64,000 nucleotides of DNA from Geosiphon pyriformis uo1 (taxonomy: Eukaryota > Fungi > Glomeromycota), in the NCBI GenBank assembly GCA_016748015.1, contig JAAOMT010000128.1, positions 1,123,538 through 1,187,537 of the forward strand. The letters are read 5' to 3'. A program made the position numbers and the translations under genes. Below, one piece after another: positions 17,519-63,847 of the stretch (position 1 is the stretch's first letter; each line of letters opens with the position of its first letter). The notes beneath the pieces are model-generated. The model made no database searches. It was not told the DNA's origin and was given only the letters and a program-made list of their open reading frames with translations.

Positions 17519-17521
17519 TAA

Positions 17522-40211: not shown

Positions 40212-40353
40212 GATAAAATTGATTAATTATGAAAAGAGAAAATAAAAAAAATTATTTTTGGATATGGGGTTTTTATTTGTTTTTGGGTTTGAGTGTTTTG
40301 TAATTATTTACTATTTTTGTTTTTGTGTTTTTATTAGAGAATTATTGTAAAAT

Positions 40354-41739
40354 TTAAGTGTTCAAGTTTGGTTGTTGTTTTATTATAATTATTGGTTCTA
40401 AATTTCGGGAAATATCTTCAGAATTAATTAAAGAGGAATGTGTACCAATTTGTGGAATTAATGATTCAGGATTGTTTCTGGAATGATAATGTTTCAATCT
40501 GTCTCTATGTGCAACTTTTGCTAATATTTTGTCATCAAGTCTTAACTTATATGATTCATTGCCTAGAATTTCGTGAATATAAAATGGTCCATCCCATTTG
40601 TTTTCAAATTTCTCACTCCATTGTTTTTCAGCCTTAGTTCTGTGTAAGAGAACTTTATTTCCAACTTTAAATTCATTGGTAATAAGTGGTAATTTGTTGT
40701 TATGTCTTTTTTTTTGTTGAGCTTGGGAATGTTCAATATGAGTTGCTGCTATTCTTCTTTTTTCTTCCAGTGTACTAAAAAAAGTGTAGGCTCTTCTTTG
40801 AAGTGTTTCTTGAAAGTTTTCTTCATTGATTGGTTGCACTGGGTATGTTTCCACTGTGAAATTAATTGGTAATGTTGCTGCCCTTCCATAAGTAAGATCA
40901 AATGGTGTGTGTTTCATAGTATCTTGTTTTAGTATTCTGTATGCTAGTAAAACTGATGGAATAAAGATATCCCATTCCTGTTCAAAGTCTGTTGAGACTT
41001 TGGCTAGAGATTCACACAATGTTCTGTTGAAATGTTCTACAAATCCATTTGTTTGAAGGTGATAAGATGATGATAGAGGTCTTTTGACATTGAACCATTC
41101 ACAAATTTCTTGTATCAAGTTGTTCACAAAATGTGTTCTTTGATCAGATAAGAGTTCAATTGGGCATCTATGTCTACAGATAATGTCTTCATAGATGAAA
41201 TTTGCTACTGATTTTGCATCTGCTCTTTGGATGACTCTAGCTTCAGGCCATTTGGTAAGATAATCCACTACAACTGCAATATAACAATTTTCTTGGGTTG
41301 TGATAGGTAATGGTCCGACTAAATCAATTTCAACTCTGTCAAAAGGTTGTCCAATTTTGATTGGATTTAAAGGTTCTGTGGGGCAAGTTCCTCCTCTTCT
41401 TTGACAATTATCACAAGATTCTACATATTGTCAAATGTCTTTTTACATGTGAGACCAAAAATAATGTTCAAGGGTTCTTTGAATTGTTCCCTCTTTTCCC
41501 AAGTGTGCTGAAGATGGATCTGTATGCATGTTGTATAAAATTGTTTCTTTTTTATTCTCTTGTACTAATCTGAGTGGCTGGTTTGGTTTTCTGTGATTTT
41601 TATAATAGATTTTGTTCTGATGTATGAAATATTGTTTTGATTGGTGTTGTAAGCAGTGTTTTTCACTTGGAGACCAGTTTTCTGGTATGGTAAGAGTCTC
41701 CAAATAATTTTTAAGATTGTTGTAGTTTCTGGGATCCAT
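40354..41739 (-). pseudogene. Integrase ORF of A2
   Basis: Starts MDPRNYNNLKNYL; HTDPSSAH, SDQRTHF, FVEHFNRTL, WDGPFY. Confidence 0.93.
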
Positions 41740-41797
41740 TCTTGTTTGGTTATTTTTGTTGGTAAGTTGGTAAGTTGTGGTGGAATTGTTGTTGGTA

Positions 41798-44700
41798 TTA
41801 ATCTTGTCTCATTCTTAAAAAGCTATCAACATTGGTATGTAGTTTTCCTGGTTTGTGATGTACAATATATCTGTAGTCTGCTAGGAAGTCATTCCATTAA
41901 GACTGTTTGGCACTTTGTTTAGTTTTCTTTTTATTGAGCCATTTGAGGCCAATGTTGTCCGTTATTATGTCAAATTCTTTTCCATTCTTCAGATATTGTT
42001 GAAAATGTTTAAGAGCCCAAATAACTGCAGCAGCTTCTAATTCAGTTGAGTCATATTTGAGTTCTGTTGGCTTGAGTGTTCTGCTGGCATAGGCAATAAC
42101 TTGTTCTTGGCCATTTTCATCCAATTGTGATAAGATGGCACCAAATGCTATATGTGAAGCATCAGTGGCTAATTGGAATCGTTTGTTGAAGTCTGGATAA
42201 GCAAGAACTGGGGCTGTTGTCAATTTTGTTTTGAGAATTTCAAAAGCTTTTTGTTGTTCTTCAGTCCATTTGTATGGTACATTTTTGTTGGTAAGATAAT
42301 TGAGTGGTTTGGCAATTTCTGAAAATCCTTTTATGAATTTTCGATAGTAAGAGGCTAATTCCACAAATCCTCTTAGTTCTGTAGTATTTCTGGGGGTTTG
42401 AAAGTTTTTGAGCACTGATTGTTTCTGGATTTGGTTTGATTCTATCTTTACTAACTATGTGTCCAAAAAAGATCAAGCTTGTTTTTCCAAAGTGACATTT
42501 CTCAATATTTAACTTTAATTCTGCTTTCTGTAATCGTTGAAAAACTTCTCACAGGTGAATGAGATGGGCTTCAAAGCTTGGTGAGTATACATCAGTATTA
42601 TCAAGATAAACAACTACTGATTGCCACAAGAGCCCTTCATAAACAACATCCATGAGTCACTGAAATGTTGCTGGTGCATTGCAGAGTCTAAAAAGCATAA
42701 TATTAAACTCATAATTTCCTTCTTGAGTGGTGAATGCTGTTTTGGGTCTATCTTTTGGGTCCATTTCGACTTGCCAGTATCCACTTTCCAGGTCTAAAGT
42801 TGAAAAGAACTTGGCTTTTCCTAGAGCATCTAGCATGTCATCAATTCTTGGAAAAGGGTAGGCATCTCCAATTGTAACACTATTCAGTTGTTTATAATCA
42901 ACACAGAATCTGATTTTTCCGTTTTTTTTTTTAACTAAAACTACTGATAAGGCCCAAGGACTTCTTGATGATTGAATCAATCTATTATTGAGCATTTTTT
43001 GGACCTCTTCTTTGATGAATTGGTGGCTGGCAGGTGGCACTTGATAAGCTTGTTGATGTTTTGGTAGAGCATCTTCTGTATGAATCTGATGTTGAACAAT
43101 GTCTGTTTTTCTCAAGTCATTGTTGTCTTTTGCAAATATATCTGCAAATTCAGCTATCAATTGTTTCAATTGTTTTTGTTGTTGAGGTTCTAAGGAATCC
43201 ATATTGATTCGAGAGAGTTTTTCTTTCAACAAGTGGTAGTTTTCAGTAGTGGGAATGATTTTTGGATTTGGGAGTAGAGTGTGCTTTACAATTTCGATGA
43301 AATTAGAGACAATTTGAGGGTTTTTATCTTGAAAGATATTGCTGTGTATGATTCCAATTTCTAATTTGTTTAATAAAACAATAGGGTAATTATTGGGGTT
43401 GTAGAATATAACTCGAAATTTTTTCATTCCTTTGGGAATATAAACGTTTGGAATTGATATTTCATGCTTCAAACAGATTTGTTCATTGGATTCAAAAATT
43501 TGTTGTGTAGTGGTGGGTTTTGAGCAAGTGTAAATTTCATGATGTTCTCCAAAAGGTGAAATGGTAATTGGCTGAGGAAGTTGAAGAATCTGGTAAGATT
43601 CATTTTGTGTATTAAGAACTATGTTTACTGGGACTGTAAATCGTCCAGTTGAACCAAAACCTTGAATTCCTCTTTTACTTTTCCCAATTGTTCTCTGTTG
43701 TTTACTGATTGTAAACCCGAAATGTTGATTAAGGGTAAGTAAATTGCTTGAGCAATTTTTTCAGCATGTTTAATTTTGAATGGTTTGTCTGTCTTATTCT
43801 GTAACATGATAATAATGTCTCCAGTGTATCCTGTATCTATAACTCCTCCTCTAATATTGATTCCTTTGCTTGCCAATGATGATCTGGAGGCAATTTGAAC
43901 CATTGCTCCTGGTGGAATTTCAAGAGCAATTTTGAGATTGATTTTTGTCAAAAACTTTGGTTGGAGAATCAAAGTATCTTTTCCTGGGTATCTTAGGTCA
44001 TATCCAGCATCAATTTCGTGTGCTTTTTCTGGTCTGATTCCTTGGCCATGGTTGTCAAAATATTTAAGTTGTAGAGGTGGTTGCTTTTCAAGAAGATAGA
44101 TGGGAGTGGTTGGTAGTTCTTCTACTAGTTCAGATACTCCAAATTCGATTTTATTTTCATCATTCCCATCTGACAGAGGAATGCTAAGAGCATAACATTC
44201 TAAACACCATTGGTCATCACAAGGCATAACACATTCTTCACACAATTGAATGTTTATTTGCTCTAATCGTTGAATTTGAGTTTTTTTGGTCAGATATATA
44301 TGGCTTGCAATTTGGTGGTAGGTTTCTACTTCATCTTCATAATCAAATCCAGCTAATTCCATGGTATACTCAATATATTCAGCTTCTTTTATTTGGTAGA
44401 CATCTTCTTGGGTGGCTCCATTGATCAATGCCATTGCTAAGTCAAAAATCATTTCAGCATCATAAGGGTAGTGATAAAGTTTATTGAGAGCACTATTGTA
44501 TGCTGCATTAAATGGTGTTCTTCTTCTGATTTTTTCCAAAATTGATAGAGCATATTGACAGGTTTGATCACATACTCCTTCTCTCATTGCTACATCAATC
44601 TAATTGTATTCTTCTGGTAGCATTTCTCCACATGTAAGGCAAGGTATGTTGTCCCATTTTCTACTTCTTTTTGGAGATCCAAATCGTTTTCTATGGCATG

Positions 44701-47398
44701 CTTTGCAAAAGTAACAGGTACGAGTTTCATATTCCTCTTTTGGAGAAATACATGCTCCCATTGATGAAAGTTTTTTGTTGCAATCTTTGCATTTGAGTGG
44801 AATATAGAATGGTTGTTTCCATGGTTCTGATGTAGAATATCTAACTTTCTTCCATCCCCTTGATTCTTCAAAAATCTCTTGTTTGGTTTCTTCAGCCCAA
44901 TTGGATGTTAATCCAAGAGCCATGTAGGTTTCAGTAAGTGGCATTTCTTTCTCCTCTTCAAATTCAAATACTGGAGCTTTTTCTGATTGTTTGTTAAAGG
45001 TACCATAGGTTGCAGGTACTATGGTATATTGTCCTTGGTATGAGATTTTAAGTTCTTGAGTTTCCTAGTTCAGGTTTGCATTGGCCTTGAAAAGCCAATC
45101 ATTTCTGACTAGAGCTTGGTATTGGGGTGCATCCATAACAAGAACTTTAATTGGAATGGTGATTCTATCAATTGAAAAAGGGAAATCATCAATTTTTCCT
45201 ACTGGAGTCTTCTTCATACTATCAGCTGTGACAATAACTGTTTGAGCTAGTCTGTCTATGTTTTGTTTGAGTTGTTGCATCAGCTGGTAAGTAATAATAC
45301 TTCCAGCTGATCCACTATCTAAGATTAAGCAAATGGGTTTTCTTTCCACTATAGCTTTTATGTACATGGCAGTAATTGCTTTCTGTTCATTGACTGTTGC
45401 ATTACTAAGCAGAAATGATGATTCATTTGCTTCAAATTCAAATGGAAATATATCTGACAGATTAGCATTTTGGGCAATTTGAGCTGGTAGGATGGTGTGG
45501 TTGGAAGAATTTAATCTTAGCACTGTAACTTTATCTTCAGAAAGTGCAGTTTGTTGAAAATCCGATTCTTCTGGTATTGTAAGATAACTGGGTTGAGTGT
45601 GATAGTGATTGGGTCTTTGCTGACCCGAATTTCAGGGAACCAACTGGTTATTTGGATTGATTCTGTTGTGGTTATTCTGCAATTGATTTTGGGGTGTGAA
45701 TTGGTTATGTTGAACCAATCTTCTTGCTGGTACTTGATATTGTTGAGTGAGTGGTGTCTAATATGGCTGAATTGGTAAAGGTTGCTGATATTGTTGCTGC
45801 ATTAATTGTGGAGCTGGTGGATAGTAACTGTTTTGATTTTGTGGTCTTGGTGAATAATAGGTTGGTGGTGGAGATTGGTAATAAGATTGTTGTGGTGAAG
45901 AGTAATGTTGATTACTCCTGTTTTGTTGGTCTCTTTGTAATTTCCTATGATCTTGTTTCCAGTGTTCTAGAATTCCACAATAATGACAATTTTTAGATTG
46001 GTTGTTGAATGGTAATCCAAAATTGTTTTGGTTGTGTTGTTGTGGTGATTGATATTTTTGTGGTTGTTGCTGCTGTTATTGTTGGTTTGTAAAATAGCTT
46101 TCAACTTTCTTTGTGAGTTGGTCTATCTTTTTTTCAGCTGCTGAGCTGGTTTCTCCAATTGCAAGATTTACAAGCTTGGTGTGATTTGCTTCTTCCATTG
46201 CCATTTCATAGTTCTTTGCATGTCTAATAGCAGTTGTTAAGTCTGTTGGAGCATGTGGACAGACTTTTTTAATCAGTTTGTCTTTTAATCCTCCTATAAA
46301 CTGATCCAGAATTTGAGCATCAGAATAGTAGTCATTGGTTTCCAATTGTCAGATTTGTCTAAAAAGTTTGTTAAATCTTCCAAGATAGGTCATAACAGAT
46401 TCAGATGTTTCTTGTTTGATATTGCAAAAGCGGTTTCTGAGAGTGATAGAGGTATTGTTGTCAGTGAATTGTTGTAGAAAAGCATTTTTAAATACTTGCC
46501 AGTTTTCAAATGGTTCTTCTAAATTCTTAAACCATTTTCTTGCTGTCCTTTGGAGAAAGTAGGGAATTGCTTTGAGCATTCTTGCTGCAATCCAACCATT
46601 TGCATCTCCTGCTTTTTGAACTTTGTTAAGCCATTCTTGAGAACTGGTATCATTGTCTTCACCAGTGAATTCTGAGATTTTTGCAATGTAAGCAGTTGCC
46701 ATTTCTTCTGGTTCTGATTTAGTTTCTTCACTTTCCAAGCTTTTTGAGTGATTAGTTTCGTTTTCCTGTAAGTAATCAATAATATTGGCACTTGTTGATA
46801 TTGGTTCTTGCTGTTAAGTAGGATTTCTAGATGACTGAAAATTTTTTGGTCTGGAGAAACGGCTAAGTGGTGAACTTGGTATTTGTGGTTGAACAAGTGA
46901 AATTGGAAATGGTGTAATAGAAAATGGTAATTTGACACTGGTTCCTTGTTCAAGTGTTTGCAAGTATTTGGCAGTTGTCTTTTGTAGTGTTGGAGTGTTT
47001 GGAGTGGTTCTTGAGTATTGCTTCAATCTTTGTTTGTCTTTGTTGCTTGTTTTTGTCTCTGATTCAAAGTCAAAAGAGTATTTAGACTGTACTGGGTATT
47101 TTTCTTCACAATACTCAATAATGTTAAAATTAAGTTCTTGGAAGTAGGTAGCAAGTGTTTCACTGTTCAGGTCTTCTGTTCCCAATTGTGAATAGTGTAC
47201 TAAATTATTGTAGAGGTTGCTTCTAACTTCTGAAATATTGTAGTTTCCAAAAAGATAATTGTTGATGCAGTTTTTAATGTATTGGTATACTGATTTTTTT
47301 ACAACTTCAATTCCGTCTGGAATGTTGAATCTTTGCTTGCAGTGGGTGTAAATTGACTGGTAATACTCTAGAGTTGCTGTGTCTGGTGTGGTTGCCAC
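41798..47398 (-). pseudogene. gag-pol of A2
   Basis: N-extension, capsid (AYIAKISEFTGED..EWL), protease LDSGS, Cys-rich region, dUTPase (43645-44035), RT YLDN, and RNase H ATDAS ending RMRQD-stop. Confidence 0.94.
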
Positions 47399-47443
47399 TT
47401 TGAATTTGTTGTTGCTGTATTATTTCCATAGGAGAACACCAAA

Positions 47444-48434
47444 TGTTACCAGAGGTTTTTGGTCTCTTTTCTTAAATGTTGGTAATGTTGATTTGCTGTG
47501 AATTCACATTCTTAGGAAGTAGTTGAACCTCCAATAACTGAATTTATCTTCAAATTATTTTCTATAATTTGAACTTGCTGGGCTTATAAGTAGAATGGCC
47601 AATTCTGTGCCAGTTACTTTATGTAGTTACGTTGTAGTAAACGTCAACTCTTTCTCAGGAATTGCTTGTCTGGAAGCTCACTAAAATGTATAGTTACTTT
47701 GCTGTGAAAGTCAACTCTTCTACAGGAATCTTGTCTGTAGGCTACCCTAATAATTGTAATAAGAAAAGAAAAAAAATATAAAAGAAATATAAAAGAAATA
47801 GAATTTTGTCAAGAGAAACGTTTTCTATTCAGGCCTGGAGTCACTAACAGTTTATTGAAATTGGTAACTAATCAATTTCAAAATGTTAGTTGGGTTTTGG
47901 AGATTTTCCAAGTATAATAATTAAAGAATTTGGTTTTTCAAATTATTTGATATTTATTTCTTTTGTGTGTGTAGGAATGATTCTAAGTAATAAATCTAAA
48001 GTAAGATACATTTTCCAGAAGAGAAAAGCTCTTCTTTTATACAACTTGTTGTAGTACTAGTCTATGAACTTGCATTTTTTCTTTTTGTTCAAATTTCGGC
48101 AAACTAAAGATACATTTTGATGAACTACAAGTTATTTCGCTGAATTATTGATTAATTTGGGTGAACTATTGATTAATTTGGGTGAACTATTTATAATTTC
48201 GGCGAATTTCTGTAAATTTCGGCAAATTTTTGAATGTTACAAAGTTCAGGGTATTGTGTAATTTGATTATCTTACTTTCTGTTATACTAATTAGATTATT
48301 TTAATTGAATCGTGATATGTGATAATTGATTAAATAATAAATGATAATTTGAAATGATATTAATATACTAATGAATTATAGAAATTATAAGGGTAATTTC
48401 ATGCTAATTAATAGCTAAAATTCTACTGGTAACA
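47444..48434 (-). repeat. 5' LTR of A2
   Basis: TG...CA ends; followed by PBS TGGTGTTCTCCTATGG. Confidence 0.96.
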
Positions 48435-49378
48435 ACATCAATAATATTTCAATTAATAATGACAAGACTGTAATTATTTCCATTAACCAAAAAGTAAAGG
48501 GGGCTTTTTTGATAATTAATGGGAGTTTTATATCAATTGCAAAAAAGGAAGAGTCATATCACTACTTGGGAATTTATTTTTTGACTAATGGTCTTTTTAA
48601 ATCTAATTTGGCTAAAGCTTATTCAGATGTCAAGTTTTTTGTAAACATGGTTTTAAAAAAAAAATTTCAGATAAGCAGTTTTGCTACTTAGTTTCTATTA
48701 TTTTGTAGTTAATTATGTATTATCATACACAGTTTAATTTTATTTTAGTTAATGTTTACTGCAAATAAGATTTTTTAATCAGGAAGAGTTTATGGTCGAA
48801 AACAAGATTGCCTAAGAACTTTTCCAATAAGGTTTTGTATTATTTTTTGCTATACAACCTAAAATCTTTTGAACAATTACAAACTGAGGATAAGGTGGTT
48901 TCAATAGTTTTGTTTGCTAATTTTAAGGATATTTTTGGCAGACTTTTTGATCATTAGTTTTTGAATTTACAAGTTTTGGGCTGGGCTTCAATTAATTTTT
49001 TACAGTATCTAGTTAAATTAAAAGTTAATCATGTGAACAATTTTTTTGCTAAAGTGGTAAGAGTATTTTTAAGCAATAAGATTTTTTTATCAAACAGCCT
49101 GCTACAGATTTTCTATAATTCAGACAAGTTTTTGATGTCTAATATCTTAGAAAAGACAGTTTACTATAGAACAGTAATTTTTTTGAAATATTATGATGTT
49201 GTTTTTGGTAACAAACTATTGGATAAACATGATTGCTTAATGTTGTTGCAATTGATTATTTGGGGTCTCAAATCAAATAACAAACTCGTAACTTGGTGCT
49301 CAAAAGCTATTTCCATTGATGATGTTCTGAAAGTGTTGTATCTGAAGGTTTTAATGGAGTTCTTTGTATAATGGACAG

Positions 49379-50357
49379 TATTACCAGACAAAATTAGAGA
49401 TATTGTTTAGCATGAAATTATCTTTATAATTCTTATCATTAATTAGCATATATTATTGTTTCAAATTATCACTTATTATATTAGCAAAATGTCCGAAATT
49501 ATCATTTAATTAATAATCCAATTGGTACATAACACAAATATAACCTAAGTGCGATGATCAATTATGCAATAACCCAAAATATGTAACATTCAAAAGTTTG
49601 CCGAAATTTGTAGAAATTTGCCGAAATAATTGATAGTTTACCAAAATATCTAATAGTTTGCAGAAATAATTTGTAGTTTACCGAAATGTATCTTTAGTTC
49701 AGCGAAATTGTAGAAAAGAGCAAAGTTTAAGTTCATAGAATAGTATTATGACAAGTTGTATAAAAGAAGAGCTTTTCTCTTCAAAAAAATGTATTTTACT
49801 TTAGATTTATCACTTAGAACCATTCCTACACACACAAAAAAAAATAAATATCAAATAATTTGAAAAACCAAATTCTTTAATTATTGCACTTGGAAAATTC
49901 TTAAAACCCAACTAATGTTTTGAAATTGATTAACTACCAATTTCAGTAAACTGTTAGTGACTCTAGGCCTGAATAGAAAACGTTTCTCTTAACAGAATTC
50001 TATTTTTTTTACATTTTTTTTATTTTTTTTATTTTATTTTTTTATTATAATCATTAGGGTAGCCTACAGATGAGATTCCTGTAGAAAAGTTGACTTTCAC
50101 AGCAAAGTAACTACACCTTTTTAGTGAGCTTCCAGACAAACAATTCCTGGGAAAGAGTTGATGTTTACTACAACGTAACTACACAAAGCAACTGGCATAG
50201 AATTGGCCATTTCACTTATAAGCCCAGCAGTTCAAATTATAAGAGATAATTTAAAGATAAATTCAGTTATCGGAGGTTCAAACACTTCCTATAGTTGTGA
50301 ATTAACAGCATTACAACAAACATACAAGAAAAAAAAGACCAAAAACCTCTGGTAACA
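49379..50357 (+). repeat. 5' LTR of C (terminal TG mutated to TA)
   Basis: Direct repeat of 58258-59239. Confidence 0.95.
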
Positions 50358-50402
50358 TTTGGTGCTCTCCCATGGAAACAACACAGTAAAAACAACTTCA
50401 AA

Positions 50403-53400
50403 GTGGTAACCACATCAGATGCAACAACTCTAGAGTATTACCAGTCAATTTACACCCATTGCAAGCAAAAATTCAACATTCCAGACGAAATTGAAGTTGT
50501 CAAGAAATCAGTATACCAATACATTGAAAACCGCATCAACAATTATCTTTTTGGAAATTACAATATCTTAGAAGTTAAAAGCAACCTTTACAATAATTTA
50601 GTACACTATTTACAGTTGAGAACTGAAGACCTTAACAGTGAAACACTTGCCACTTACTTTCAAGAACTTAATTTTAACATTATCAAGTACTGTGAAGAAA
50701 CATATCCAGTACAGTCTCAATATTCTATTGATTTTGAATTAGAGACAGAAACAAGCAACAAAAGCAAACAAAAATTGAAACAATACTCAAAAACCACCCC
50801 AAATACTCCAATACTACCAAAAACAACTGCCAAACACTTACAAATACCTGAACAAGGAACCAGTTCAAAACTTCTACTTACTATCACACCTTTTTCAGCT
50901 TCATTTACACAAGCACAAACACCTAATTCACCCTTAAATCGATTTACAAGACTAAAAAATTTTACATTACCCAGAAGTCCTACCAGACAACAAAAACTTC
51001 TTTAAACTAGTTCCAATCTTCTTGACTTTCTAGCTGAAAATCAAAGTGAACACTCTAAGGCAGCAGCGAATGAAAAAAACGACTCTGAAATATCTGAAAA
51101 AGAATCAATAGACAGTAAAAACAAAGAAGACAAAATGACAGCATACATCACAAAAATCCCTGAATTTAATAGAGAAGACATTGAGACCAGTCTCCAAGAA
51201 TGGCTCAACCAAGTTACTAAAGCTGGAGATGCAAATAGATGGAATGCTACCAGAATGTTAAAAACAATTCTCTACTTTCTCAAAGGAACAGCAGGCGAAT
51301 GGTTTCAAAACTTGACCACCCCTTTTAATGACTGGACAGCTTTCAAAACGCCTTTTTAGAACAATTCACCAATAACAACACCTCAATCACACTTCAAAAT
51401 TGTTTTCGCAATATCAAAAAAGAACCCTCCAAATCTGTCATGACTTATATTGAGAAATTCAACAAACTTTTCAGATGAATTTGCCAACTTGAAACTAATA
51501 ATTATTATTCTGATGCTCAAATCTTGAATCAATTTATCGCTGGTTTAAAGGATAAACTGATTAAAAAGGTTCACCCACATGTCCCAGAAGATTTAAACTC
51601 TGTCATTTAGCATGCAAAGAAATATAAAATGGCCATGGAAAAAGCCAATCATACAAAACTAGTAAACTTAGCCATTGGAGAGACCAGCTCAGCAGCTGAA
51701 GAGAAAATTGACCAATTCACAAAGAAAGTTGAAAACTATTTCACCAACCAACAACAATAGCAACCCTAAAGATATTAACCACCCCAAAAACTGAATCAAA
51801 ACAACTTTGTATTATCCTCTAATAACCAGCCTCAGAATTGCCATTACTGTGGAATCCCTAGCCACTGGAAAAGAGATTGCAGAAAGCTACAATAAGACCA
51901 ACAAAACAGAAATAATCAACATTATCCTTCACCACAACAATCTTATTACCAACCACCACTACCACTAGTTTACTATCTACCAAGACCACAATATTAAACT
52001 GACTACTATCAACCTGCTCCACAGCCAATACAACAACAGTATCAACAACCCATTCAACATTACCAAGTATCTGCTCGAAGATTGGTTTAACAAAACCAAT
52101 TTGCACCACAAAACTGATTCACAACAAACAACAACAGAATCAACCCAAATAACCAATTAGTTCCCTGAAATCCAGCTCAACCAAGACCCACCCATTATCA
52201 TACTCAACCTAGCTATCTTACAATACCTGAAGAACAAAATTTTCACCATACTGCACTCTCAGAAGATAGAGCTGCAGCACGACAACAAAACCCTTCCTAT
52301 ACTTCTACCACAATCCTACCAGCCAGAATTGCTAAAAATGCCAATCTTTCAGATATATTCCCTTTTGAGTTCAAAGCAAATGAGTCACTATTCCTGCTTA
52401 GCAATGCAGCCGCCAATGAACAAAAAGCAATCACTACTATGTACACTAAAGCAGAAGTCGAAAGAAAGACAACTCACTTGATCCTAGACAGTGGATCTGC
52501 CAGAAGCATCATCACCTACCAATTAATGCAACAGTTAAAGAGAAATGTCAACCAACCAGCTCAAACAGTAATCGTTACTGCTGATGGCATAAAAAAGACT
52601 CCAGTAGGAGAAATTGACAATTTTCCATTTACTCTTGATGGAATCACCATTCCAGTCAAAGTTCTTGTAATGGACGCATCCCAGTATTAAGCTCTTGTCA
52701 GAAATGATTGGCTTTAAAAAGCCAATGCAAAATTAGATTGGGAAACCTAAGAATTACAAATCTCTTACCAAAGACAATATGCCCAAGTACCTGCCACTTG
52801 TGGTACATTCAACAAACGCTCCAAAAAAGCCCCGGCTTTTGAATTCAAACCAGAAGAAGAAAAACAAATAATCAAAACATTCATGGCTCTTGGATCAACG
52901 TCCAATTGGGCCGATGAAACTAAACAAGAACATTTTACTCCACACTCCGAACCCAAAACCCCTGAATGGAATATCCCTTACTCAAAGACTGAGCCAAGGA
53001 AACAACACTCCTACATTCTCCTTAAATATAAGAACTGCCACAAAAAATTATTGTCAATAGGAGCTTGTATTTCACCTGAGGAAGAATATAAAAGTCACAT
53101 CTGCTACTATTGCAAGGCCTGCCATTGAGAACGATGGGACCACTTGATTAAAAGAAGCGGAAAATGAGATGGAACACCCTGTTTTACTTGTGGAAAGCAG
53201 CTTCCCGATGAATGTGACTGGATTGATGTTGCATTTAGAGGAGAAGTCTACAATTAAATTTGTCAATATGCTTTTTCTATTGTGGAAAAAGTAAAACGTG
53301 GAACACCTTTCAATGCCACATACAACAGCACCTTCAGCAAACTTTATCACTACCCCCATGATGCCAAAATAATCTATGAACTTGCCATGATTTTAATTAA

Positions 53401-56014
53401 CAGAGGAACCAAAGAAGATGTCCTTCAAATAAAAGAAGCTGAATATATTGAATATACATTGGAATTAGCTGGATTTGATTATGAAGATGAAGTAGAAGTA
53501 TACCACCAAATTGCAAGTCACACCTACTCAACCCAAGAAGCTCAAATTCAATGATTAGAGCAAATAAACATTAAATTATGTAAGGAGTGTATAATGCCAT
53601 GCAATGAACAATGGTGTTCTAAATGTTACGCTCTTAGCATTCCATTGCCCAGCAAAAGTGATGAATACAAAATTGAATTCAGAGAATCTGAAGCAACAGA
53701 AGAAATTGGAACAACACCCATCATCGAAAATTAGCCTGCTTTACAACTCAAATACTTCAACAACAATAAACAAAGAATAAAACTGGAAAAAGCACATGAA
53801 ATTGATGCTGAATACAATTTACAATATTCAGAAAAAGACACTTTGGTTCTTCAACCAAATTTCCTTACCAAAATCAACCTCAAAATTGTCCTCGAAATTC
53901 CACCAAGAGCAATGGTCCAAATCGCTTCACAATCATCATTGGCAAGCAAAAGAATCAATGTTAGAGGAGGAATTATAGATGCTGGATATATAGGAGACAT
54001 TACAATCATGTTACAAAATAAAACTGATAAATCTTTTCAGATTGAACATGCTAAAAAAATTGCTCAAGCTATTTATTTACCCTTAATCAACATTTTGGGT
54101 TTACAATTAGTCAGTCAAAGAGAACAATTGGGAAAATATAAAAGAGGAACCAATAGTTTTGGTTCAACTGAACAATTCACAGTTCCAGTAAACATAGCTC
54201 TTAATGAACAAAGTGAATCTCACCAGATTCTACGACTTCCACAACCAATTACTATTTCATCCTTTGGAGAACACCCTGAAATTTACACTTGTAAAAAGCC
54301 AACAACCACACGACAAATTTTTGAGTCCAACAAACAAGTCTGCTTGGAACATAATATCTTAATCCCAAACATTTATATTCCAGAAGGAACAAAGAAAGTC
54401 CAAGTTACTTTTTACAATCCCAACAATTTCCCTATAGTTTTATTAAATAACTTAGAAATTGGAGTTATTCACAGTAATATCTTTTAACAAAAATTACCCC
54501 AAACAGTCCCCGATTTCTCTGAAATTATTAGACATTTATTACCAAAAATCAACCCAAACCCCAGCTCTGAAAACTACCATGTTGTTATGAAAAAACTATC
54601 TTGAATCAACATGGGACAACTTGAACCATAACAACAAAGCCAGCTCAAAGAGTTAATTGCAGAATTTGCTAATATCTTTGCTAAAAACAACAATGACTTA
54701 GGAAGAACCAATTTGGTTCAACACCAAATCTATACAGAAGATGCCAAACCAAGGCAACAGCAAGCCTACCAAGTTGCTCCAGAAAGTCACCAATTTATCC
54801 ATGAAAAAGTACAACAGATGCTCAACAATAGGCTTATTCAACCATCAATGAGTCCATGAGCTTCACCTGTGGTCTTAGTTAAAAAAAAAAATGGAAAGAT
54901 ACAATTTTGTGTTGATTATTGACAACTCAACAGTGTCACTATTGGAGATGCCTACCCTTTTCCCCAAATTAATGACATGCTAGATGCTCTTGAGAAGTCC
55001 AAATATTTTTTGACATTAGATTTAGAGAGTGAATACTGGCAAGTTGTCATGGATCCCAAAGATTGCTCCAAAACAGCATTCATCACTCAAGGAAGAAATT
55101 ACAAGTTCAACATAATGCCTTTCAGATTATGCAATACACCAGCAACATTCCAAAGATTCATGGATGTTGTTTACAAAGGCCTCCTTTGGAAATCAGTAGT
55201 TGTCTATTTCAATGATACTGATGTTTATTCACCATCTTTTGAATTACATTTAAAACACCTGCATGAAGTTTTTTAACAATTACGGAAAGCAGGATTGAAA
55301 CTGAACATTAAAAAATGCTACTTCAGAAAAATGAATTTGGCCTTTTTTGGTCACATTGTTAGCAAAGATGGAATTAAACCAGACCCCAGAAAAATCAGCA
55401 CTGTCAAAAACTTTAAGACTCCACAAAATACCACAGAATTAAGAGGATTTATTGGATTAGCATCCTATTACCAAAAATTTATTAAAGAATTCTCAGAAAT
55501 TGCAAAACCCTTCAACCAGCTCACTATTAAAAACATTGAATACAAATGGACGGAAAAACACCAAAAAGCTTTTGAAATTCTCAAGGAAAAGCTGACAACA
55601 GCTCCAATTCTTGCCTACCCAGACTTCAGTAACCAATTTCGACTAGCTACAGACACTTCTTACACTGCCTTTGGTGCCATCTTATCACAATTAGATAACA
55701 ATGGAAATGAGCGAGTAATTGTTTATGCTAGCAGAACATTAAAACCAGCCAAAAAAAACTACTCTGTCACAGAACTAGAAACAGCAGCCATAATTTGGGC
55801 CTTACATCACTTCAACTTTTATCTCAGGCCTAAATAATTTGACATTATCACTGATAATATTGGACTTAAATGGCTTTAAAATAAAAACACTCAGCTGAAT
55901 GCCAAACAAATCTGATGGACAAGATTTTTAGCTAACTACTAATATATTGTATACCACAAACCAGAAAAACTCCATACCAATGTTGATTGTCTTTCAAGAA
56001 TGAGGCAAGATTAG
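50403..56014 (+). pseudogene. gag-pol of C
   Basis: Same domain order as A2; dUTPase at about 53783-54172; RNase H ends RMRQD-TAG at 56012-56014. Confidence 0.94.
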
Positions 56015-56060
56015 AATACAAAACCAACACCCATTTGAATTAACAACAAAACAACAAACA

Positions 56061-57446
56061 ATGAACCCCAAAAACTACAACAATCTTAAACAATATTTGG
56101 AGACATTAACAATCCCAACAGATTGGTCCTCAGATAAAAAACATCAGTTACAACAACAAGCCAAACAATACTTCTTACACAATAACATGATTTATTATCA
56201 AAACTTCAGAAACCCAGACAATTCACTCAAATTAATACAAGAACATGAAAAAGAAACTATTTTATATAACATGTACTCAGACCCTTCATCAGCACACCTA
56301 GAAAAAGACAGCACCACCCAGAGAACATTAGAATATTACTTTTGGCCTCAAATAAAAAAAGACATTTATGAATATGTTAAGTTTTGTGATAGTTGTCAAA
56401 GAAGAAGAGGAACTCATCCTACAGAACCTTTAAACCCAATCAAAGTTGGACAGTCTTTTGACCAAGTTGGTATTGATTTAGTTGGACCACTACCTATCAC
56501 AAACCAAGGAAACCATTATATTGCAGTAGCTGTAGACTATCTTACCAAATGGCCTAAAGCCAGAGCCATTCAACAAGCAAATGCAAAATCAGTAGCAAAC
56601 TTCATCTATGAAGACATCATTTGTAAACATGGATGCCCAATAGAACTTTTATCTGATCAAGGAACACATTTTGTGAACAATTTAATTTAGGAAATTTGTG
56701 AACAATTTAATATCAAGAGACTATTATCTTCACCCTACCATCCACAAACAAATGGACTTGTAGAACATTTCAACAGAACATTGTATGAATCATTAGCCAA
56801 AGTCTCAACCGATTTTGAGCAAAAATGGGATCTCTTTATTCCATCAGTGTTACTAGCATATAGAACACTAAAACAAGATACCACAAAACACACACCATTT
56901 GATTTAACCTACGGAAGGACAGCAATGTTACCAATTAGTTTCACAATAGAAACATATCCAGTACAACCAATTAATAAAGACAACTTTCAGGAAACACTAC
57001 AACGAAGAGCCTATACTCTGCTTAGCACATTGGAAGGAAAATGATGAATAGCAGCCACCCATATTAAACACTTTCAAGCTCAACAAAAAGAATGGCATGA
57101 CAACAAATTGCTTCCAGTTACCAATGAATTTAAAATCAGAAACAAAGTTCTCTTACACAGAACTAAAGCTGAAAAACAATGGAATGGAAAATTTGAAAAT
57201 AAATGGGATGAACCATTCTTTATCCATGAAGTCCTAGGCAATGGATCATACAAGCTAAAACTTAATTACAAAATCTTAGCAAAAGTTGCACATGGAGATC
57301 GTTTGAAACACTATAATTCCAGACACAATTCTGAACTATTAATTCCACAAATTAGTACACATTTCTCTTTAATCAATCCCAAAGATATTCTCCAAAATTT
57401 AGAACCAATAGTTGTCATTGAACAACCTCCCAACTTGAACACTTAA
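56061..57446 (+). pseudogene. Integrase ORF of C
   Basis: Starts MNPKNYNNLKQYL; CDSCQ, GIDLVGP, SDQGTHF and a GPY/F-like module; three same-frame fragments. Confidence 0.93.
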
Positions 57447-57569
57447 ACTTAAATTTATTATTATAGTTATCTCCTTATAATTTAGAAACAATCTCACAAA
57501 AACAAAGCAAAAATAACATAAAAACCCATACACCAAAAATAATTTTCTTTTATTTTCAAATCTCTTATA

Positions 57570-58289
57570 ATGACTATTCTTCAAAACATTCAACAATTAT
57601 TCCAAAAACTAATGTTAGCTTTAAAAACAATACCCGAATTATCCATTACTGTTACTGGAAACTACATTAATTATACCCAAACAGAAGTAGTTACAAATTT
57701 AGCCCCAAATTCACAAAAATATCACTCATATAAAAAGAACACAAGAAGTTATTCTGGAATTCACCTGCCAAAACTTTTAAAGCTTGTTTTAAGAGAAAAC
57801 TTAATACTCACTCCTATTAGTATTCCACCAAATGCTACTATTCAACAAAAACTTCAACTGTGTCTTAATGAAGAAAACTATGACTATACTCCAATATATA
57901 GATATTTCTACATTGGAAAAACACTTTATGAACAAAAACAGGAGCTTACAGCAGCAAATCTCACAAAAGAAGCTATTCAGAAACAACTCCACAACGAATT
58001 CAAGACAACAGCTGGACCTACAAACAGTCATTATAAACTAAGAGCTGCCCTTAGACTTTATAACCTATTCCACACCTGTGAAAACGTCCTACAAAACCCA
58101 ATTTTACAGCCTTTGAAGATTCAATACATTGGAAAGCTCACAAAACTGAAATTTCAACAATTTTCAGACCAAATTTCTTCAATAATTTTGGATTATTATC
58201 TGGAAATTACAGACAGTACTTGGACTTTGACAGAGCTCAGTCTTGAGAAGAAGGTTATGTTACCAAATGAAATTAGAGATATTGTTTAG
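57570..58289 (+). CDS. Accessory ORF3 of C, uninterrupted 239 aa, unknown function, ends inside the 3' LTR
   Basis: ATG-to-stop ORF with homologues at the same position in A2, B and D. Confidence 0.8.
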   Translation: MTILQNIQQLFQKLMLALKTIPELSITVTGNYINYTQTEVVTNLAPNSQKYHSYKKNTRSYSGIHLPKLLKLVLRENLILTPISIPPNATIQQKLQLCLNEENYDYTPIYRYFYIGKTLYEQKQELTAANLTKEAIQKQLHNEFKTTAGPTNSHYKLRAALRLYNLFHTCENVLQNPILQPLKIQYIGKLTKLKFQQFSDQISSIILDYYLEITDSTWTLTELSLEKKVMLPNEIRDIV

Positions 58290-59239
58290 CATGAAATTAT
58301 CTTTATAATTTCTATCATTAATTAGCATATATTATTGTTTCAAATTATCACTTATTACATTAGCAAAATGTCCAAAATTATCATTTAATTAATAACCCAA
58401 TTGGTACATAACACAAATGTAACCTAAGTGCAATGATCAATCATGTAATAACCCAAAATATGTAACATTCAAAAGTTCGCCGAAATTTGTAGAAATTTGC
58501 CGAAATAATTGATAGTTCACTGAAATATCTAATAGTTTGCAGAAATAACTTGTAGTTTACCAAAATGTATCTTTAGTTCGGCAAAATTGTAGAAAAGAGC
58601 AAAGTTCAAGTTCATAAAATAGTGTTATGACAAGTTGTATAAAAAAAGAGCTTTTCTCTTCGAAAAAATGTATTTTACTTTAGATTTATCACTTAAAACC
58701 ATTCCTATACACACAAAAAGAAATAAATATCAAATAATTCAAAAAACCAAATTCTTTAATTATTGTACTTGGAAAATCCTTAAAACTCAACTAACGTTTT
58801 GAAATTGATTAGCTACTAATTTCAGTAAACTGTTAGTGACTCCAGGCCTGGATAGAAAACGTTTCTCTTGACAGAATTCTATTTCTTTTACATTTCTTTT
58901 ATTTTTTTTCTTTTATTTTCTTATTATAATCATTAGGATAGCCTACAGATGAAATTTCTGTAAAAGAGTTAACTTTCACAGCAAAGTAACTACACTTTTT
59001 TAGTGAGCTTCCAGACAAGCAATTCCTGAGAAAGAGTTGACATTTATTACAACATAACTATACAAAGCAACTGGCATGGAATTGGCCATTTCACTTATAA
59101 GTCCAGCAGTTCAAATTATAAGAGATAATTTGAAGATAAATTCAGTTATTGGAGGTTCAAACACTTCCCATAGTTGTGAATTAATAGCATTACAATAAAC
59201 ATACAAGAGCTAAAAAGAGACCAAAAACCTCCAGTAACA
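58258..59239 (+). repeat. 3' LTR of C
   Basis: TGTTACC...AGTAACA. Confidence 0.96.
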
Positions 59240-59712
59240 ACAGAGATTCAATAGTTGTTTTATCTGTAGCTTTTCAGACTCACAAGTTTGTCAATTTTTT
59301 TCTCAGCTTGGTGGCTGGCAATTCTCTGGTAAGTAATCTGTATTTTCTGTACATGTCCTACCCACTCACAGAAGTTTTTTACCAGGCAATCTTTGACGTC
59401 AGTAATTAGCACTTTTAATCAATTGGTTAGTGCACAATAACAAAATCACAGAAAAATAAAAAAAATAAAGAAATCTAAAAAAATAAGCCAAGGTGATTTG
59501 CAGATTAGTATCCCATCAATAGCTGTAATCAAGAGCTATTGTTCCAGCATGGTTAAGTATTAATTATTATCAACATGAAGTGTTGATAGTGGAGAGTGGA
59601 TTGAGATATAAAATAATTATTTATTTAATGATTGTGTTTCTAGGCTAAGAATTCTGTGGTATTGATTCTGTCTTTTCTGTTTCTAACACTACTGCTATAT
59701 ATACATATTTAA

Positions 59713-59862
59713 GATTCCTCAATTCCTCAATTCCTTGTAACAGGAATCCTGGAATTTCTGGAATCCTGCAATTTCTGATGAGAGAAATCCTGGAATTCTG
59801 GAATCCTGCAATTCCTCATTGGAGAATCCTGCAATTCCTCTAAGAAGAATCCTGGAATTCCA
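59713..59862 (-). repeat. Tandem GAATCCTG(G/C)AATTCC-type array in LTR-D U3
   Basis: About six copies of gaatcctg(g/c)aatt(c/t)c plus attcctca repeats. Confidence 0.85.
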
Positions 59863-59953
59863 CATTTACTATGTCTACCTCTGATTGGCTAATATCTACT
59901 GACTAATAATACTATATTTTTCTATATTTTATGAGTAACATTATTCCCTCCTT

Positions 59954-60643
59954 TTAATATTGAGCTTTGTCGAAATCTAATTTCTTTAATTCTTCCTCTT
60001 GAATTATTTCTTGAACTTCTTTTTCGAGTATTACTTGTGTTATTTGAATTTGTAATTCTTCAAATTGGGCATTGGTCATTTTTCCCAATTGATTACTTGT
60101 AACTATGTCCATTGCTGTGTTGAGTAAGATTTCTGGTCAGTCTTAAAATTCCATATATAGCTGGTAAATGACTCGAGCTTGTGTGGTTAGATTGTTCTTT
60201 CCCACAAATTGTTCCAGTTGTCTCAGTATTGTTGTGTCAAATAATTGTTTTGTTTTGTCGGTGTACAAATTCTGGATATTTACGTGTTGTCCCAAGTAGA
60301 AATGGCAATAGTTTTTTGGAAATTGTTGTGTCCACCAAGTCCAATTTTCTTTAGTAAGTTCTTGGTATAGTCCGACTATTTGTTGTTCTTTTATGGCCAA
60401 TTTTATCTTGGTTATGATCTTGTCAACAACATTTTCAAGTCTTTTCTGTACTTTGTGTTGTAGTATTTTTGCCATATTTTTGTAACAAATGGTTTGTTGA
60501 TTGATTGTAATTTTTATTTCCTGGTGTTGGATTAATTGAAAAATTTGTTGGGCTAGTGAATAGATATTGTCTATAATTTCCATTTTTCTGATCTTTTCTG
60601 TCACGTCAACCATGTTTTTTTTATATATTCTTTTGTCGATCAA
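59954..60643 (-). pseudogene. Accessory ORF3 of D
   Basis: MEIIDNIYSLAQQIFQ...YCHFYLGQ...ARVIYQLY; ends AQY-stop like B ORF3. Confidence 0.82.
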
Positions 60644-62022
60644 TTGGACATGTTATTGTCAATGATAATTATTGGTTTCAGATCTTGTGGAATTTCATCT
60701 GGTTGGACTAGTATTCTCTGTACTTCCAATTGTGGAATATTATTGATAGATGCTGATGCTATCTGGTGATATGGTTTCAGTCAATTACCATGTGCTGCTT
60801 TGGCTAAGATTTTGTTGTCCAGTCTTAATTTGTAAGCTTCATTTCCTAGGATTTCTTCTATGTGAAATGGTCTATCCTATTTGGAGTTGAATTTTCCACT
60901 CCATTGTTTTTCCACTTTGGTATAATGTAGTAATACTTTGTTTCCAATCTTGAATTCAACTGGTTTGTCTGGTAGTTGACTATCATGTCTTTCTTTTTGT
61001 TTTTTTTGTGACTTTTGAATATTATCAGCTGCTCTTCTTTGTTTGTTTTCCAATGTTTCCATTAAGTCATATGTTTTTCTTAGCAATGTTTCTTGAAAAT
61101 TTTCTTCTGTTATTGGTTTAGTTAGATATGTATTAATTTCTCTCTCTACTAGTAACGTTGCTGTTCTCTCATACACTAATTCAAATGGTGTTGCTTGTGT
61201 AGTATCTTGTTTCATTGTCCAATAAGCAAATAGTATTGATGATATAAACAAATCCCAATTGTTCTGGTTTTCTTGGCTGAGCTTAGCTATTGCTTTACAC
61301 AATGTTCTGTTGAATCTTTCAACTAATCTATTGGTTTGTGAATGGTATAGTAATGATAATGGTCTCCTAATTCTGAATCTTTGGCTCAATTCTGTTAATG
61401 TTCTGTTCACAAAATAAGTTTTTTGGTCTGATAATAATTCTTTTAGATATCCATGTCAACAAATTAAATCCTAATGAATGAATTCAGCAATAAATTCTGC
61501 ATCTGCTCTTTGAATTGCTTTCACCTCTGGCTATTTAGTGAGATAGTCCATAGCTACTGCTATGTATCTGTTTCCTCTGCTGGTGATTGTTAATGGTTCG
61601 ACTAAATCAATTCCAATATAGTCGAATGATTGTCCCACTTTGATTGGTCTTAATGGTTTACTGGGTCTTGTTCCTCCTCTTCGCTGACAAGCATCACAAT
61701 TTTGAACATATTGAATGATGTCTGGATACATTGATGGCCAATAGTATCTCTTTCTGGTTTTTTCCATGGTTGCTTCTTTGTGAAAATATCCTGCTGTTGG
61801 ATTTGAGTACATGTTGAATAATATGGTCTTTTTTTCTGGCTCTGTAATTACTCTGGTTGGTTGATCTGGATCCCTTTTATTTTTCCAATAAAGTATATTT
61901 TGGTAAGTAATAAAATATTTTGATTGTTGTTTAATACTCTTTCGTTCCATTTGAGATAAATTTTCCTTGAACTGTTGAGTGGTTATATAATGTTGAAGTT
62001 GTTAATATTTTTGTATATTCAT
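60640..62022 (-). pseudogene. Integrase ORF of D
   Basis: ATG at 62022; CDACQ, GIDLV, LVERFNRTL. Confidence 0.92.
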
Positions 62023-62086
62023 CTTTTGTTGTATTTTTTGTTAGTATTGTTCTGGCTTTTGTTATATTTTTGGGTTTGAAATGTTT

Positions 62087-63847
62087 TTAGATTTGTCTTA
62101 TTTGTGACAAACCATCAGCATTTTTATTGTCTTTTCTTTTTTTATAGTGTATAGTATAAGTATATTGTGAGAGTGCCATTTTCCATCTGGATTGGCGGCC
62201 ATCATCACATTTTTGCTTTTGAAGTGATGTTAATCCTTTATGATCTGTGTATATATCAAACTTTTGGCTCAAGTATTTGTTCCACTTCATAACTGCCTGC
62301 TAAGTGTTCTTGTTCTGGTGTTCCATAGTTTTTTTTGGCTGGTGTTAGACCTCAGCTGACATATGCTACTGAATGTTCTCTGCTATCTGGTCCTCTCTGA
62401 AATAGTACTGCTTCTAATGCTTGGCCAGATGTATTGGTAGTGATGATAAATGGTTTGCTGTAATCTGAATAGATCAGTATTGGAGCTTGGATGAGCTTTC
62501 TTTTCAGAATATCAAAAGCTTCTTGTTGACTTTCTGTCCATTTATATTTTGTATTTTTGTTTTGCAGTTGGTTGAATGGCTGTGCTATCTTGGAGAAGTT
62601 TTTGATAAAACGTCAATAGTAGCTGGCGAATTCCAAGAATGATTTCAGTTTTGTCATATTGGTTGGTACTGGAAAGTTTTTTACTATCTCTATTTTCTCT
62701 GGATCTGTTTTGATGCTGTCTTTGCTGACTATGTGTCTCAAGAATTTTAGTTCTGTCTTGCCAAAGAAGCACTTTGTTGCATTTAACTTTAGTTCTGCTT
62801 TTCTTAGTCTTTTGAACACTTGTTGAAAATGATGAAGATAATTATCAAACATTTTTGAGAATACATTGGTGTTGTCCAAGTATACATCTACTGATTTCTA
62901 CAATAAGCCAGTATAAATGATTTCCATTAGCCATTGGAAAATGGCTGGAGCGTTGGTTAAGCCAAATGGCATCACTTCAAATTTGAAATTCTCTTCTCTA
63001 GTGGTGAATGCTGTTTTCTCTTTGTCAGCTGGATTTATGGCTACTTGCCAATAACTACTATTCAAGTCTAATGTTGAAAACCATTTGTTTCTACCAAAAG
63101 TGTCGAATAATTCCTGTATTTGTGGAGTTAGATAGCTGTTTCTATGAGTTACACTGTTGAGTTTTCTGTAGTCTACACAAAATCAGATTTTCCCATTTTT
63201 TTTACAGACAAGTACCACTGGTGACAACCATGGGTTCATTGATAGTTGAATTAGCCCATTGTTAAGCATTCAGTTTATCTCTTGACAAATGATCTCATGG
63301 CTGGCTGGCAGCACTCTGTATGCTCTTTGTTTGATTGACATTACATCTCTAGTTTTGATCTGATGTTGGATGATGTCAGTTTGGCCAAACTCATTTTCGC
63401 TGGCAAAGATGTTGTTGAAATTGTTGAGCAATATCTTGAACTGCATACATTGGAGTGGATTTAAGTTTCCCATGTTTATTTGTTCCAATTGTTCTGGTTG
63501 GAGCAAATAACATTTGTCTTGTCCATAAATTGTTTGTAATGTGATGTTGACATATCCACAAAGTTGTGGAAAGTCTGGAATGGGGTTTGGTGGTTGGTTT
63601 TCTATTTCTGTGGTTAAATATCCGATGGTGGTTCCTTCTGGTATGTTGATGACATTGCCAGTGTTGTTGTAGATGGGAATTTTTATGCAGCTATAGCTTT
63701 TGGCTGGTATGTGGAGATTAATCACCCCAATCTCTCCTGATTCACAAAGGTTTGTTTCAGCTTCAAAAATCTGTTCTTGTTCTTTTTCTTTCTTTTCTAT
63801 TGCTAGCATGTACTGGCTATATGGTGGAATGAAAATAGCTTGACTGG
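62087..63847 (-). pseudogene. pol of D (dUTPase-like tether, RT, RNase H ending IRQI-stop)
   Basis: ORF fragments 63270..63809, 62613..62879 and 62087..62290. Confidence 0.9.

Follow-up and report, generated by a model that had tools for sequence, protein, structure and literature searches.

Integrase of long terminal repeat (LTR) retroelements normally enters the particle within Gag-Pol and is then released by the protease. A stretch of 64,000 nucleotides from the fungus Geosiphon pyriformis uo1 (contig JAAOMT010000128.1, positions 1,123,538 to 1,187,537; hereafter the window) carries Ty3/Gypsy retrotransposons in which Pol ends directly after RNase H, the integrase follows in an open reading frame (ORF) of its own, and another frame, ORF3, comes behind it. 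The question raised by this locus is whether such a layout is a true genome plan or the debris of an ordinary gag-pol gene and, if the former, how the integrase is made. The copies were mapped by self-comparison and six-frame reading of the window, which resulted in two LTR families, A (E1, E2, E3, and a solo LTR) and B (E4 and E5); their coordinates are collected in Table 1.

The RNase H/integrase split and its lineage

The split between RNase H (RH) and integrase (IN) is real and not a result of decay. It is present in all four window copies that include the junction (E1, E2, E4, and E5): Pol is closed by TAG in E1 and by TAA in E2 and E5, and the integrase begins in the +1 frame after 46, 58, and 64 nt, respectively, while in E4 a single TAA lies 6 nt before the integrase AUG, in the same frame. 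The frames of E1 contain 35 stop codons, four of which are also stops in E2, namely those closing Pol and the integrase and two internal ones resembling CGA decay. Among 879 contigs aligned over positions 55900-56170 (run X1), no variant at a frequency of 12% or more was found at the stop (56012-14) or at the AUG (56061-63), and no indel was present.

Metagenomes were searched with the integrase alignment as the query (19 of 64 collection parts were scanned), and the best 80 of 567 confirmed stretches were analyzed. RNase H was recognized upstream of the integrase in 49 of the 80 loci; all 49 are split and none is fused, the remaining 31 being mostly too short upstream or ending in a Pol extension. 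The stop after RNase H and the stand-alone integrase ORF described in the original prediction are therefore found at every window and metagenome junction that could be read, and a collapse into one gag-pol ORF, checked as its refutation, did not occur, the split being kept in loci with RNase H upstream. In L020, L030, L033, L055, L063, L069, and L075, Pol runs 216-586 aa past RNase H, and this extension has no Pfam match.

The best solved-structure match of the integrase profile was Ty3 Gag-Pol (E = 9e-52). Pfam detected no chromodomain in the window integrases, as had been predicted, and PF00385 was on none of the 120 stand-alone protein matches listed, so the elements were not assigned to chromoviruses, which carry that domain at the integrase C-terminus. 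The Met start of 119 of these 120 matches (search range 253-805 aa) was given no weight on its own, as gene callers impose a start. Rhizophagus is among the fungi with stand-alone integrases of this family. The Ginger and Maverick stand-alone integrases were rejected as well, given the RNase H upstream in 49 of the 80 loci. A search for longer proteins gave four matches above 40% identity among the 120 listed, other long ones listed having 28-38%. P0121, P0122, and P0123 (Cetraspora and Rhizophagus clarus gene models) consist of a partial reverse transcriptase (RT) or RNase H joined to a headless integrase; since the end of RNase H or the beginning of the integrase is lacking, they look like gene-model joins across the stop, which hide the split. 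P0141 (>40% identity) is a partial fish match covering 37% of the query. Viral contigs yielded only three weak integrase matches.

The phylogeny was based on concatenated RT, RNase H, and integrase sequences in 66 rows, i.e., 29 split elements and 37 fused, mostly unnamed proteins from the 120 long matches listed; redundant rows from plants and animals were omitted, as were the three joined gene models, and no root was inferred. All 29 split elements group with the fused P0125 and P0127 into 31 rows that are separate from the Gypsy elements sampled from plants and animals (91/93, not starred), and window families A and B are sisters (100/100). The RT-only FastTree did not resolve the split group. 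Because two fused polyproteins nest in the group, the split, judged by this tree, is strongly clustered and not strictly monophyletic.

Membership in Ty3/Gypsy follows from TG...CA LTRs, a primer-binding site (PBS), a polypurine tract (PPT), target site duplications (TSDs), a Ty3-type capsid, and the order protease (PR)-RT-RH-IN (RVT_1, RT_RNaseH, H2C2, rve). The signature of the lineage, as far as it can be read from these loci, is Gag-Pol / IN / ORF3. These results support the proposal that the elements form a Ty3/Gypsy lineage of their own, whose integrase and ORF3 are not part of the polyprotein, and the range of this lineage is far wider than the window.

Synthesis of the integrase

The start of the integrase was analyzed at the DNA level, over the 50 junctions with a located AUG or over 72 loci, as stated. 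An ATG occurs within two codons of a common position in 68 of the 78 integrases with a modelled N-terminus. Its context is start-like, with A at -3 in 69% and G at +4 in 72% of the 72 loci, compared with 31% and 30%, respectively, for 423 internal ATGs, and upstream ATGs are depleted (20 vs. 37 in shuffles). With respect to the stop-to-AUG distance, the 50 junctions comprise 19 overlaps (-1 to -20 nt, including ATGA and TAATG), two spacers of up to 20 nt, 21 of 21-100 nt, and eight above 100 nt, one of which (L042) measures 61 nt after correction; the three spacer classes modulo 3 have 24, 15, and 11 members. YAG is not enriched upstream of the AUG (62 vs. 70.5) and 11 of the 72 loci have no AG within 40 nt of it, for which reason a splice acceptor adjoining the integrase AUG is not supported. 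The second codon of the integrase always has A as its middle base (72 loci) and is listed as D, E, or N; these second residues are the pattern of NatB N-terminal acetylation substrates.

In 21 of the 80 metagenome loci (Table 1), which belong to two or more branches of the tree, the interval from the Pol stop to the integrase AUG contains a conserved and covarying RNA structure of about 37 nt. It is formed by a short outer stem, an invariant purine-rich bulge, and a hairpin with a CA-NN-GUGA loop. In 16 aligned copies, 176 of 176 cells pair and six of the 11 pairs change on both sides; slid controls pair at 19-53%, a comparison that is favourable to the structure because it was drawn from the same sequences. 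The structure starts 21-30 nt after the Pol stop in all seven loci checked and ends within about 25 nt of the AUG, and its fixed distance from the stop indicates that the spacing is tied to termination. Rfam gave no match at gathering score in the window, and in 18 loci only MIR397, below threshold and away from the motif; a self-cleaving ribozyme identity of the motif was not supported by these Rfam scans. The motif pattern had no matches in viral contigs, and eight matches in bacterial genomes, lacking the stem and reaching 13-22 bits (57-71 bits for 19 of the 21 loci), were treated as chance.

As the AUG is kept near the stop in a start-like context, upstream ATGs are depleted, and no acceptor excess is seen, we lean towards termination-reinitiation on the genomic RNA after the Pol stop as the way in which the integrase is made. 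One LTR-driven RNA would be read into Gag-Pol; in the window families a weak GUG would give a longer form of Gag, scanning ribosomes reaching the Gag AUG at 51135. A fraction of the ribosomes ending at the RNase H stop would then restart at the nearby integrase AUG and yield less integrase than Gag-Pol, and the integrase would enter the particle by binding RNA or Gag-Pol, not by protease release. ORF3, predicted to be a small helical accessory protein, is likely to be made by the same restart.

Victoriviruses have an AUGA stop/start overlap. An overlapping or close stop and start is likewise shared with SART1, LINE-1, caliciviruses, and a hypovirus, although in none of these systems is the product an LTR-retrotransposon integrase. 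Stop-restart has been reported for SART1, where it requires a downstream structure, for LINE-1 (63-nt spacer), and for the hypovirus (PMC5972666).

Several observations weigh against reinitiation or against the split elements as one strict clade. Ribosomes rarely reinitiate once they have translated a long ORF and, when they do, mostly depend on a tethering element (PMC5972666). The junctions of the Geosiphon lineage show no conservation of the calicivirus UGGGA motif, with TGGGA present in the 100 nt before the stop at just one of 20 close junctions, and the termination upstream ribosome-binding site (TURBS) motif is not enriched. The RNA structure is absent from the window copies, and simple scanning would have to pass a stable stem immediately ahead of the AUG, which should impede it. 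Long spacers (365, 521, and 727 nt, and up to 466 nt before ORF3) suit a subgenomic RNA better, and the branch-point-like YTRAY is slightly enriched upstream of the integrase (33 vs. 24.3; 20 of 500 shuffles as high). Furthermore, the in-frame TAA of E4, the weakest window junction, could be decay, and with the true RH-IN fusions P0125 and P0127 inside the 31-row group, the split label needs three changes on the tree.

Of other routes, we regard as possible, though doubtful, that integrase and ORF3 of the same three-ORF layout are translated from subgenomic RNAs, arising by splicing from a donor near the 5' LTR, from an internal promoter, or by processing at a structured element, the 5' end of which the covarying structure could mark. 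The long spacers in 7-8 of the 50 junctions and the weak YTRAY excess speak for such RNAs, as does the fact that ORF3s of LTR elements are typically spliced (PMC5408684), but no AG acceptor is conserved in the 40 nt next to the integrase AUG, the spacers of E1 and E2 have no common motif, and the tight stop/start overlap kept in 19 of the 50 junctions is unneeded for a separate RNA. It appears improbable that ribosomes enter the genomic RNA internally, irrespective of the Pol stop, through the A/C-rich spacer or the RNA structure: the end of the structure about 25 nt or less from the AUG in 21 of the 80 loci and the unstructured A/C-rich spacers of the window copies would agree with it, whereas the fixed 21-30 nt between stop and structure, which is absent from 59 of the 80 loci and from the window, would not.

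Least credible, and largely refuted, is the idea that the integrase is still a Pol fusion, produced by frameshifting or readthrough, or that an ordinary gag-pol only looks split through decay or misassembly. It could draw on the many decay stops of the window copies (35 stop codons in the E1 frames), the single in-frame TAA of E4, and the annotated 'fusions' P0121-P0123, but the latter, without an RNase H end or integrase start, look like gene-model joins, the stop is invariant in run X1, intact loci are split, and the Met and the start context are conserved. As all three frame offsets occur and spacers range from -20 to several hundred nt, the junction sequences exclude one common frameshift or readthrough rule.

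ORF3 and relation to known systems

An ATG-started ORF of at least 100 aa within 700 nt after the integrase was found in 30 of the 40 loci having at least 600 nt there, and most of these ORFs are linked by pairwise BLAST or by a shared motif pattern; the ORF3s of window families A and B connect through L001 and P0269. In many loci the ORF3 AUG overlaps or closely trails the integrase stop, and many ORF3s extend through the PPT. The length varies from 120 to 280 aa across the clade, and a 147-aa member is predicted to adopt an all-helical fold (pLDDT 94.6), so that, according to the models, ORF3 represents a clade-wide family of helical proteins. The closest database proteins are Geosiphon pyriformis hypothetical proteins (83% and 68% identity). 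Foldseek gave no match at E<=0.001 in PDB and BFVD, the best Z score in a structure comparison was 5.2 (generic helical bundles), PDB sequences matched only at E>=0.38, no usable Atlas match was obtained, and Pfam indicated no env family, the single Glypican match concerning one member below the cut-off. ORF3 is thus a conserved family with a confident predicted model and no structural match found; it might be a nucleic-acid-binding helper of expression or packaging, a suggestion that we make with reserve.

Large repeat proteins P0272 and P0273 are weakly similar to ORF3 (E = 2e-6 and 2e-4, respectively). Two loci show a cargo swap, i.e., a NUDIX hydrolase in the ORF3 slot (L012:1945-2889, E = 1.6e-10) and a Mrr-like restriction endonuclease ORF just before the integrase (L052:509-1237, E = 5.5e-9). 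Contigs L031, L040, L044, L049, L063, and L078 read IN-ORF3-gap-Gag, probably because their LTRs were collapsed in assembly; tandem copies or one-LTR circles would look alike.

Canonical Ty3/Gypsy elements (Metaviridae, e.g., Ty3) have the same LTRs, PBS, PPT, TSD, Gag capsid with zinc knuckle, and PR-RT-RH-IN order, but differ from the lineage described here, in which the integrase is started by an AUG of its own outside the Pol polyprotein and is followed by a conserved non-env ORF3. In the available parts of three reviews (PMC3248453, PMC10224137, and PMC2864245), integrase is described solely as a Pol domain. The dUTPase between PR and RT was reported for PosPlaTy3-5 (PMC2864245) and for fungal, rotifer, and planarian elements (PMC6431247), which confirms that the PR-dUTPase-RT order has precedent. 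Fungal dUTPase-bearing Gypsy elements (PosPlaTy3-5, Phanerochaete elements, and Tuber Tmt1), compared by description only, share this order, and a separate integrase ORF is not mentioned in the available accounts of them. Bdelloid rotifer Juno, Vesta, and TelKA combine PR-dUTPase-RT-RH-IN with a non-env ORF3 (PMC5408684), but their integrase is in Pol and, in the part of that source available, their ORF3s are of GDSL, DEDDy, env, or transmembrane types, none of which had a Pfam match to the ORF3 studied here.

The literature search revealed no description of a separate integrase ORF after RNase H, with subscription journals, Repbase Reports, and GyDB outside its coverage. The available parts of PMC5911963, PMC10508981, PMC13468544, PMC11952901, bioRxiv 10.1101/2021.03.30.436303, PMC2864245, PMC6431247, PMC5408684, PMC5972666, PMC3248453, and PMC10224137 do not describe an integrase in its own ORF.

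The comparison with complex retroviruses and caulimoviruses made in the original prediction proved loose, since no env, movement protein, or transactivator was identified. In foamy viruses, Pol is synthesized separately from Gag and has to be packaged in trans, glyco-Gag of murine leukemia virus (MLV) is a non-AUG N-terminal Gag extension, and caulimovirus Pol ends at RNase H, reinitiation being used; Caulimoviridae have a movement protein and a transactivator and no integrase or LTR. Unlike these viruses, the Geosiphon element integrates with LTRs and TSDs. Assignment to Caulimoviridae was rejected on account of the integrase, LTRs, and TSDs, and assignment to env-bearing (errantivirus-like) Gypsy elements or complex retroviruses on account of the 120-280 aa ORF3 with its all-helical model and no env Pfam family.

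While the PR-dUTPase-RT order, non-env ORF3s, and stop-restart are known, the Ty3/Gypsy three-ORF genome appears to be new, and its mechanism is one that we infer. Tentatively, and with less confidence than in reinitiation itself, these elements can be seen as an old and widespread Gypsy clade of Glomeromycotina and related soil fungi, with a tricistronic RNA, an integrase and a new-family accessory protein made by stop-restart, a new structured-RNA class in one branch, and integrase packaged in trans. A clade with its integrase outside Gag-Pol needs another way to set the integrase level and to load it, and, if the tricistronic reading is true, would show in a living system how integrase becomes uncoupled from Pol, the step separating retrotransposons from pararetroviruses. 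For the study of reinitiation after long ORFs, which is thought rare in fungi, the clade also offers natural stop/start junctions by the dozen and, in addition, a new covarying RNA element. Mycorrhizal-fungus genomics is affected too: gene models join or mis-annotate these ORFs (as in P0121-P0123), and LTR elements constitute 41% of the G. pyriformis genome (PMC11952901).

Gag-Pol and the window copies

Pfam domains of the Gag capsid, protease, dUTPase, RT, and RNase H are in one frame and the integrase is in another. E2 is open in one frame from the N-terminal extension to the dUTPase and E1 from the capsid to the RNase H end; since these stretches together span the whole, family A encodes one Gag-Pol ORF, and frameshifts are copy-specific, as is the one near 51356 in Gag of E1, where E2 is in frame.

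Table 1. Features of the LTR elements in the window and metagenome loci with the RNA structure.
Feature	Position	Strand	Remarks
E1 (family A)	49379-59239	+	full copy, LTR to LTR
Left TSD of E1, ACAG	49375..49378	+	right copy 59240-59243
5' LTR of E1	49379..50357	+	ends TGTTAC...GTAACA, first G decayed
U3 20-nt array in E1 5' LTR	49595-49709	+	
TATA-like site in E1 5' LTR	49759-49765	+	
PBS-like 18-mer of E1	50360..50377	+	begins TGG
N-terminal Gag extension	50403..51134	+	244 codons, in frame; putative GUG start 50403, GUG use inferred
Gag	51135..51880	+	AUG 51135; capsid Retrotrans_gag/Ty3_capsid; zinc knuckle 51839-51880
Aspartic protease	52412..52762	+	LDSG
Cys-rich domain	53036..53626	+	4 CxxC in E1; common to A and B
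dUTPase PF00692	53789..54169	+	E=1e-14
Second domain ('dUTPase-like repeat')	54176..54580	+	conserved, ~130 aa
RT core (RVT_1) and RNase H (RT_RNaseH)	54878..55939	+	
Pol stop TAG of E1	56012..56014	+	directly after RNase H
Spacer of E1	56015..56060	+	46 nt, A/C-rich, non-coding; not conserved with E2
Stand-alone integrase ORF	56061..57446	+	H2C2, rve, SH3-like tail; +1 frame, own AUG
ORF3	57570..58289	+	239 aa, intact in E1; runs through PPT into U3 of 3' LTR
Polypurine tract of E1	58245..58254	+	
3' LTR of E1	58258..59239	+	
E2 (family A)	38677..48434	-	full length; 77% identity to E1; TSD ATGT
E2 Pol stop and integrase AUG	41800; 41739	-	
E3 (family A)	1..4939	-	window edge cuts inside RT, before RNase H; internal deletion ~3442
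Solo LTR (family A)	32050..33019	+	TSD CCAT
E4 (family B)	8247..18403	+	full length; TAA 15443, integrase AUG 15452
E5 (family B)	49244..63847	-	3' half; Pol stop 62089, integrase AUG 62022
RNA structure, metagenome loci	L007:1117-1153, L010, L011, L016, L020:5193-5229, L022, L026, L028, L029, L030, L033, L035, L039, L042, L044, L060, L062-L065, L069		between Pol stop and integrase AUG

The Cys-rich region has five CxxC each in E2 and E4 and gave no Pfam match and no tblastn match in the 80 metagenome loci, only two of which contain a dUTPase. The dUTPase, the Cys domain, and the putative GUG start are features local to the Geosiphon-type families. The region originally called a dUTPase-like repeat is indeed a conserved domain, but its kinship with dUTPase was not confirmed (hhalign probability 0.6%, with shallow profiles; predicted fold pLDDT 37). 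Transversions between E1 and E2, counted at codon positions 1/2/3, amount to 21/6/46 in the integrase, 11/10/30 in ORF3, 18/14/44 in the Cys domain, 6/0/15 in the dUTPase, and 8/7/20 in the second domain; the extension shows a less marked third-position excess (16/11/22), and the spacers have none. Codon-level selection on the integrase, ORF3, the Cys domain, and the dUTPase is shown by this sequence comparison.

AAA-GTG stands at the extension start in E1, E2, E3, and E4. In the family-A extension, none of the ATGs is in frame, and their density of 1.4-2.7 per kb is far below the approximately 20 per kb of Pol; this extension aligns with that of family B only at E=0.15. Among relatives, eight of 10 loci bounded by a stop have 208-580 codons before the capsid, and in every one of them an ATG lies among the first 15 codons, i.e., their extension is mostly AUG-started. 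AUG scarcity and AAA-GTG at the extension start are consistent with initiation at a non-AUG codon and leaky scanning as far as the Gag AUG, and for family A we rate the chances of such a GUG start as even. The predicted absence of AUGs from the leader was not upheld: an out-of-frame AUG at 50372, in the PBS, occurs in all three family-A 5' junctions and opens an upstream ORF of about 40 codons, whose stop in E1 arose by decay, and four AUGs in the family-B LTRs are common to both LTRs.

The layout ascribed to five copies was seen in the complete E1, E2, and E4, and not in the edge-cut E3 or in E5, which has no 5' half. TSDs are 4 bp long in all four testable insertions (ACAG, ATGT, and CCAT exact, ATAG/ATGG one transition apart) and the U3 regions contain tandem arrays with a repeat of about 20 nt in family A and about 40 nt in family B, both as predicted. 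The LTRs of the two families have the same ends (TGTTAC...GTAACA). They had been called unrelated, which agrees with the lack of any blastn match between them; their forced global alignment reached 63% and those of five shuffles 56-60%, so that they are at most remotely related. No tRNA was found within the window.

E1 sits inside the 3' LTR of E5. Its LTRs are 93% identical and differ by 67 transitions and one transversion, and those of E4 (8247-9127 vs. 17522-18403) by 66 transitions and two transversions. The near-absence of transversions between paired LTRs indicates young copies that lost their activity through C-to-T and G-to-A decay. The transition excess points to a strong mutation process in the host, resembling repeat-induced point mutation (RIP) or driven by methylation; CpG observed/expected is 0.23 in E1.

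Several smaller features accompany the copies. The end of a family-A LTR breaks into E5 at 63848 (window 63848-64000) and the 3' LTR of E2 contains a gap of 20 N (39353-39372). Inverted repeats surround E4 (4944-6813 vs. 18404-20281, 85%; 6810-7161 vs. 7897-8246, 89%) and hold ORFs of up to 250 aa. Between the LTR elements, there are older repeats with 64-72% identity, i.e., a family at 21611-22747, 29110-30259, and 37527-38671, and the pairs 26024-27069 with 34753-35795 and 27430-28194 with 36154-36918, which carry ORF remnants of up to 297 aa.

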